A DNA stretch of 61,695 nt from Escherichia coli (GTDB taxonomy: Bacteria > Pseudomonadota > Gammaproteobacteria > Enterobacterales > Enterobacteriaceae): NCBI RefSeq assembly GCF_003334385.1, contig NZ_QOWN01000027.1. One strand, written 5' to 3'. The position numbers were made by a program, and so were the translations under genes. Shown piece by piece: positions 17,802 to 18,012 of the stretch; position 1 is the stretch's first letter, and each line of letters begins with the position of its first letter. Under the pieces are notes generated by a model. That model saw nothing but the letters and a program-made list of their open reading frames with translations. It was not told where the DNA came from and made no database searches.

Positions 17802-18012
17802 ATTAGTTGCCCTGGCAAGTAATTAGTTGCAGGGGATAATATTGCCCAGGCAAGTATAAGTCAAATGAATGAATTGACCGATGCCACGTTTTGCTAAATC
17901 GGTTCAAGTTTTGTTCAATGCGATGCAAGGCTAGCTAAAGAGTGACACTTTATCCTTGTTTACCCCTTATACTTTTCGCTGATAACCCAGATACACAGGA
18001 TAACAACCACCA
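17802..18012. promoter_or_regulatory. marO operator/promoter region: two MarR palindromes, marRAB promoter and marbox
   Basis: TTGCCCTGGCAA at 17807..17818 and TTGCCCAGGCAA at 17842..17853. On the minus strand, -35 TTGACT (17859..17864) and -10 TATTAT (17836..17841) with a 17-nt spacer. Marbox ATGCCACGTTTTGCTAAATC at 17881..17900. Confidence 0.85.

Follow-up and report, generated by a model that had tools for sequence, protein, structure and literature searches.

A marR-marC intergenic region identical to the K-12 marO in an Escherichia coli chromosome segment: layout, conservation and natural variation

The intergenic region at positions 17802-18012 of the Escherichia coli DNA analysed here (a stretch of 61,695 nucleotides, called the window in the following) is, judged from its sequence, very probably (about 97%) the wild-type marRAB operator-promoter marO, which would combine a repressor switch with a positive feedback loop. 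All 211 bases align column for column with NC_000913.3 1618909-1619119 of K-12 MG1655, in which marO has been characterised experimentally, and marR, marA, marB and marC are identical to their K-12 counterparts as well. The marO found here is already known, a textbook regulatory region in its ordinary, wild-type form. Sequence identity, positions of elements and conservation come from our own comparisons, and the statements on protein binding and regulatory effects are taken from the literature on the identical K-12 locus. Nothing in the sequence, conservation and literature comparisons contradicted the assignment.

The limits of the region are set by the GTG start codon of marR at 17801 on the minus strand and the ATG of marC at 18013 on the plus strand, as given in the list of open reading frames. 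All four flanking reading frames score above the NCBIfam equivalog cut-offs: MarR with 319.3 bits over its full length of 1-144 (NF008565, cut-off 240), MarA with 294 bits (NF008564, 202), MarB with 142 bits (NF007508, 87) and MarC with 377 bits (NF008228, 162). Thus, 17802-18012 is exactly the marR-marC intergenic region, and the initial annotation, which had recognised the marRAB control region from the letters of the sequence, is confirmed by these scores and by the identity to K-12. The MarR chains in the structures 3VOE, 3VOD and 5H3R align over residues 1-144 and that of 1JGS over residues 7-144. The arrangement, with marR, marA and marB on the minus strand and marC on the plus strand, agrees with the RefSeq annotation of the identical K-12 region, and the same annotation, together with the reading frame at 17367-17801 on the minus strand, bears out the GTG start of marR that had been proposed earlier. 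The coordinates of all features are collected in Table 1.

Table 1. Features of the marO region and its flanking genes. Positions are those of the window; signed numbers are relative to the marRAB transcription start (+1).
Feature	Sequence	Position	Strand	Remarks
marO (whole marR-marC intergenic region)		17802..18012	.	211 bp; bounds of the reading frames and identity to K-12
-35 hexamer	TTGACT	17864..17859	-	-36 to -31; promoter scan
Linker between -35 and site I palindrome	TATAC	17858-17854	-	5 bp
MarR site I core, repeat unit	TACTTGCCTGGGCAA	17842..17856	-	palindrome TTGCCTGGGCAA at 17853-17842, -25 to -14
-10 hexamer	TATTAT	17841..17836	-	-13 to -8; promoter scan
marRAB transcription start, +1	A	17828	-	7 nt downstream of -10; 27-nt 5' UTR
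MarR site II core, repeat unit	TACTTGCCAGGGCAA	17807..17821	-	palindrome TTGCCAGGGCAA at 17818-17807, +11 to +22
Linker between site II palindrome and GTG	CTAAT	17806-17802	-	5 bp
Marbox (MarA/SoxS/Rob)	ATGCCACGTTTTGCTAAATC	17881..17900	+	20 bp; -72 to -53; reverse orientation relative to marRAB
Fis-like accessory site	GAACAAAACTTGAAC	17902..17916	-	sequence read directly; second copy of direct repeat D2
Second marbox-consensus match	GCAACTAATGTGAAA	17796..17810	-	forward orientation, centre +25; predicted only
marR		17367..17801	-	144 aa; GTG start 17801-17799 (+28 to +30); 0 mismatches to K-12
marA		16964..17347	-	127 aa; marbox-binding activator; 0 mismatches to K-12
marB		16714..16932	-	72 aa; 0 mismatches to K-12
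marC		18013..18678	+	divergent neighbour bounding marO; 0 mismatches to K-12

The base-by-base comparison with wild-type marO and marR that had been suggested in the initial annotation was carried out and extended to the neighbouring genes. Not a single difference from K-12 MG1655 was found over marB, marA, marR, marO and marC (window 16714-18678). In a second MG1655 record (LR881938) marO is likewise 100% identical; marB, marA, marR, marO, marC and eamA have 0 mismatches each, and the neighbours ydeA and ydeE have 1 and 3, respectively. Alleles that derepress the operon, by a deletion or duplication in the operator or a substitution in marR, do exist: a 20-bp operator duplication and the marR M74T substitution have been described (PMC3920692), and a natural deletion of one 35-bp repeat unit is known from the strain UPEC957C. 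For the locus studied here, such a mutation is as good as impossible in view of the complete identity to K-12, and the base-level comparison revealed no resistance-associated substitution, deletion or duplication in the mar locus. The mar locus of this strain is therefore without a resistance-associated change.

The identity to K-12 within the locus does not extend to the surrounding window, which departs from K-12 in several places. The window is a segment of the E. coli chromosome, collinear with K-12 1.573-1.635 Mb in reverse orientation. Its first part (1-1851) consists of Qin-type prophage DNA with tail-fibre, tfa and pinQ sequences that is unlike K-12 Qin: only 1402-1733 aligns to the latter, at 95%, and strains such as UMNK88 match this part at 99.8% identity. 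The window thus stems from a K-12-like strain and not from K-12 itself. Between 1852 and 20093, from the Qin prophage to yneK, there are 53 mismatches to K-12, none of them in the mar genes.

Two further loci of the window differ from K-12 by deletions. The yneK remnant (20036-20326, minus strand) has an internal, frameshifting deletion of 833 bp (NC_000913.3 ~1615996-1616829) with a GTATAG microhomology at the junction (20084-20093). None of 5,426 complete E. coli genomes contains this junction in one piece, and the best 24-kb matches all have about 832 extra bases there. In the ydeQRST fimbrial cluster, a 56-bp island (45432-45487, K-12 1588701-1588756) is left between deletions of 1,899 bp and 766 bp, whose junctions are essentially without microhomology; the best-matching genomes all have extra DNA at this place, and only SCU-104 gives a close, two-piece match. 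The two ydeRST deletions may be an artefact of the assembly, or the strain may truly differ at this fimbrial locus, which is variable. The search with Rfam gave two hits above the gathering score, the Hfq-binding sRNA STnc560 (13974-14186, plus strand, 276 bits) near ydeE/mgtS/mgrR and IS009 (2383-2581, plus strand, 227 bits) in the prophage part.

Within marO, a promoter scan of the minus strand revealed a sigma-70 promoter in which TTGACT and TATTAT are separated by a 17-bp spacer and together agree with the consensus at 10 of 12 positions. The transcription start site is given as 1617117+ (U00096.2) in Table S2 of PMC12052159. The same table has a marbox at 1617142, which corresponds to NC_000913.3 1619111-1619125 and hence yields an offset of 1976 between the two coordinate systems. 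With this offset and the identity of marO, the start site is NC_000913.3 1619093, which is position 17828 of the window. A promoter-like arrangement on the plus strand, directed towards marC (CTGGCA, 17 bp, GATAAT; 17812-17840; 9 of 12 positions), was discarded as a chance match, since the region gave two matches where 1.0 would be expected. The marC-proximal half of marO is mostly unconserved and contains one short block that is shared across genera, reading GTATAAG on the minus strand and TATACT on the plus strand (17968-17973). This block is a possible candidate for the -10 element of marC; no good -35 element was found at standard spacing from it.

The two palindromes reported in the initial annotation are both present on the plus strand, TTGCCCTGGCAA at 17807-17818 and TTGCCCAGGCAA at 17842-17853. 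They are the sole two matches to TTGCCNNGGCAA in the 61.7 kb, where 0.11 would be expected by chance, and none of 100 shuffles gave two or more. Both form the cores of a 15-nucleotide direct repeat with 93% identity, the copies being 35 bp apart. An inverted repeat (I1, 17801-17844, 72% complementary) that spans the same stretch was rejected as a separate element, since it is a by-product of the two directly repeated palindromic sites.

The palindromes bracket the -10 hexamer and the transcription start site, and the -35 hexamer is located upstream of both. The palindrome of site I lies inside the 17-bp spacer, 5 bp from the -35 hexamer and abutting the -10 hexamer, and that of site II starts 17 bp downstream of the -10 hexamer and includes a Shine-Dalgarno-like AGGG (17813-17810). 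The exact footprint boundaries at marO, like the position of the Fis site, are assumed from secondary sources and general background. The initial annotation had named all the elements correctly (two palindromes, promoter, marbox and GTG) but had misdescribed part of their layout, placing both hexamers between the palindromes and the marbox immediately upstream of the -35 hexamer. The first claim holds for the -10 hexamer, which is indeed bracketed together with the start site, but fails for the -35 hexamer (17864-17859). The second is correct in that the marbox is upstream of -35; the two do not abut, however, since the marbox (17900-17881) is separated from the hexamer by a gap of 16 bp (17880-17865). 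In the published description, too, site I is located between the two hexamers and site II close to the start of translation (PMC3920692). The layout originally proposed is exceedingly improbable, as it is refuted by the coordinates. The correction matters for the mechanism, because repression depends on site I being inside the spacer between -35 and -10.

Experimental work on the K-12 locus fits this layout. Deletion of site I results in a multidrug-resistance phenotype (PMC3920692), and two MarR dimers occupy the two repeats and block RNA polymerase (PMC5890708). A Sort-Seq study of the K-12 promoter recovered sites for Fis, MarA, RNA polymerase and MarR, and the signal for MarR disappeared once marR was deleted (PMC6003448). 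The mixed signal of the downstream MarR site in this assay is due to its overlap with the native ribosome binding site (PMC6003448). Since no clean repressor signal was obtained at site II, its contribution is on less firm ground than that of site I.

Site II is transcribed (+11 to +22), and its palindrome might act mainly as RNA, as a hairpin in the 5' UTR that holds the Shine-Dalgarno sequence and thereby controls translation of marR or stability of the mRNA. A stem-loop in the leader was reportedly discussed for marR translation by Martin and Rosner in 2004, and in the minimum-energy fold of the leader the AGG of AGGG is located in the loop of a short hairpin. This fold is weak, however (-4.2 kcal/mol, z = +0.68), and 152 of 200 shuffled sequences fold at least as well. 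Furthermore, the palindrome is shared by site I, which lies outside the transcript; this speaks for a function at the DNA level, in protein binding, and the MarR-dependent Sort-Seq signal (PMC6003448) is consistent with such a function. We therefore consider a main role as RNA hairpin unlikely and rejected it, since the fold of the 5' UTR is no better than that of shuffled sequence.

Taken as a protein-binding operator, site II fits into the following mechanism, which is proposed from the arrangement of the elements together with the K-12 literature. RNA polymerase would use TTGACT, the 17-bp spacer and TATTAT and start at 17828. MarR dimers would bind the two 15-bp direct repeats, each with its TTGCCNNGGCAA palindrome. 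Site I fills the spacer between -35 and -10, so that MarR bound there should exclude RNA polymerase sterically. Judged by its position over the weak Shine-Dalgarno sequence AGGG, site II may provide a downstream block, acting either after initiation or at the ribosome binding site. Upon release of MarR by salicylate-type ligands or copper-dependent oxidation, or upon its inactivation by mutation, the operon would be transcribed. Release by phenolic compounds and by copper-dependent disulphide formation has been described for MarR, which has no other targets (PMC12052159). MarA (or SoxS or Rob) would then bind the reverse marbox at -72 to -53 and activate the same promoter as a class I activator, and Fis, just upstream of the marbox, would enhance the activation. 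The GTG start codon and the poor Shine-Dalgarno sequence might keep the synthesis of MarR low, as their position suggests.

Operators of other repressors of the MarR family (such as SlyA, OhrR and MprA) share with marO palindromic sites that are bound by winged-helix dimers and overlap the core promoter, and in these systems, too, the repressor gene is part of the operon it regulates (PMC6401476). In contrast to them, marO has two direct-repeat sites, of which the first lies in the spacer and the second in the 5' UTR.

The 15-nucleotide core of the marbox (17884-17898, plus strand) has one mismatch to the consensus GCANNWWNTGNNAAA, and its centre is at -63. Table S2 of PMC12052159 gives the marR/marC marbox, as predicted, with the core TTTAGCAAAACGTGG in reverse orientation, centred at 1617054 (U00096.2). 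Class I marboxes are defined there as reverse-oriented and upstream of -35, with a centre between -56 and -85 (PMC12052159). The marO marbox is located on the strand opposite to marRAB and upstream of the -35 hexamer, and with its centre at -63 it agrees with the class I promoters of MarA/SoxS/Rob in orientation as well as in centre range. It differs from the class I promoters of PMC12052159 in being autoregulated, with the activator encoded downstream of its own marbox, and in having two operators for a dedicated repressor in addition. A consensus scan over all of the window is by itself not informative, since 27 matches were obtained against 29 expected when one mismatch is allowed.

Adjacent to the marbox lies the sequence GAACAAAACTTGAAC, which presumably fits the Fis consensus, with a centre that we take to be at about -81. 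The Sort-Seq study (PMC6003448) places the Fis site upstream of the marbox, and GAACAAAACTTGAAC is located at this place; it is only weakly conserved across genera (0.43). A 15-nucleotide direct repeat (D2, 80% identical, copies 20 bp apart) connects this accessory region at 17905-17919 (CAAGTTTTGTTCAAT) with the marbox core at 17885-17899 (CACGTTTTGCTAAAT). In the D2 region the window and K-12 have GAACAAAAC, and six other sampled E. coli strains have GACCAAAAC.

The marbox consensus GCANNWWNTGNNAAA is matched a second time, with zero mismatches, by GCAACTAATGTGAAA, which shares bases with the marR GTG and with the 3' half of MarR site II. If it were a second functional site for MarA, SoxS or Rob, then MarA would be in competition with MarR for site II, or would partially obstruct the operon that encodes it, and a negative feedback arm would thus damp the expression of the operon. 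The match is one of only two without mismatch in the 61.7 kb, the positional filter of PMC12052159 retains it, so that Table S2 of that study includes it as a predicted site (centre 1617142, +25), and in 66 of 80 species it departs from the consensus by no more than one base. However, by our estimate chance alone would give about 0.5 perfect matches in 61.7 kb, and matches with one mismatch are at chance level (see above). In addition, eight of the ten specified positions at 17796-17810 are set by MarR site II or by the GTG-AAA codons with which marR begins, so that the conservation across species is not independent evidence, and the commonest allele in other genera has its mismatch in the free W positions. 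The literature search for a second marbox in mar did not find an experimental report. A second functional site is hence improbable, more so than the RNA hairpin considered above, and the match at 17796-17810 is probably incidental. The marR GTG is also overlapped by an out-of-frame ATG-TGA 'start-stop' pair (AATGTGAAA, 17799-17803, minus strand), which is probably a by-product of the GTG-AAA codons.

To see the region across the family, a MarR scan with one genome per species was used, which gave 80 loci from Enterobacteriaceae, including Escherichia, Citrobacter, Salmonella, Enterobacter, Kosakonia, Lelliottia, Siccibacter, Franconibacter and Raoultella. marA, marB and the divergent marC were all present in 75 of the 80, and the length of the marR-marC intergenic region ranged from 186 to 306 bp. 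Mean conservation was calculated as identity to the window in alignments of full intergenic regions (77 species). It was 1.0 for the -35 hexamer, 0.98 for the start codon, 0.97 and 0.92 for the palindromes of site II and site I, respectively, 0.87 for the marbox and 0.86 for the -10 hexamer; the values for the linkers were 0.57-0.71 and those for the marC-proximal half and the Fis-like stretch 0.45 and 0.43. The named marO elements are thus conserved islands in the Enterobacteriaceae.

The individual elements show the same picture. The -35 hexamer was TTGACT in 78 of the 80 species and TTGACA in the other two, and at the -10 position TAATAT (63), TATTAT (11) and TAGTAT (6) were found. Site I had at most one mismatch to TTGCCNNGGCAA in 79 of 80 species, and site II, at a fixed distance from the start codon, was a perfect match in 78. 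The two sites were 35 or 36 bp apart in all 80 loci, and the marbox core had at most one mismatch in 77. The marR start codon was GTG in 76 of 81 sequences (80 species and the window), TTG in four and ATG in one, showing that the non-ATG start is a conserved property and not an accident of annotation. In Salmonella, Citrobacter, Enterobacter, Kosakonia, Lelliottia and other Enterobacteriaceae, marO has the same order of elements as in the window: reverse marbox, TTGACT, site I, -10, site II and a non-ATG start. These relatives differ from the window in a site I that mostly deviates at one position (TTGCCTGAGCAA in 34 of 80 species), in a -10 hexamer that is usually TAATAT and in the marC-proximal half, which is not conserved.

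Within E. coli, a 646-bp query comprising marR and marO was found in 5,417 of 5,426 complete genomes. The 99-bp core from the marbox to the GTG was identical in about 3,803 of 5,419 E. coli records (approximately 70%), O157:H7 and strain 042 among them, and nearly all of the remaining 30% were one base off. In the five point-change alleles that were sampled, the change was located either in the gap between marbox and -35 (C to T, C to G, C to T elsewhere and a 1-bp deletion) or in the discriminator (CCCC to CCTC); none of the five affected a palindrome, a hexamer or the marbox. The marbox/-35 gap is the most polymorphic part of the 99-bp core in E. coli. Since the natural variants fall in linkers, not every change in marO matters for resistance, and the earlier statement that any mutation here would be relevant to antibiotic resistance was too broad, given that about 30% of complete E. 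coli genomes vary in the core.

Larger rearrangements of marO were observed as well. In the E. coli strains JNEC-KY203 and 0H18, a toxin gene of the RelE/ParE family is located upstream of marR, in place of marC and the marC-proximal part of marO. Homology to the window begins only at about 17931, just upstream of the Fis-like site, suggesting that the approximately 130 bp adjoining marR stay together as one unit. In marO of the canine uropathogenic strain UPEC957C, precisely one repeat unit of 35 bp is missing (aligned to 17807-17841). Through this deletion the two MarR sites have become fused and the -10 hexamer is gone, and the marRAB promoter of this strain is therefore probably crippled and not derepressed.

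For the window itself, the mar region is useful mainly as a control of coordinates and genotype. The distinction between constrained and free positions of marO that emerges from the comparisons is useful for calling marO variants in clinical genomes. With its wild-type mar locus, the strain would owe any multidrug phenotype to a source elsewhere; acrR, soxRS, rob, gyrA and parC, which bear on the resistance genotype, all lie outside the window. The corrected layout, with site I in the spacer, site II over the ribosome binding site and a class I marbox 16 bp from the -35 hexamer, would account for the proposed mechanism.
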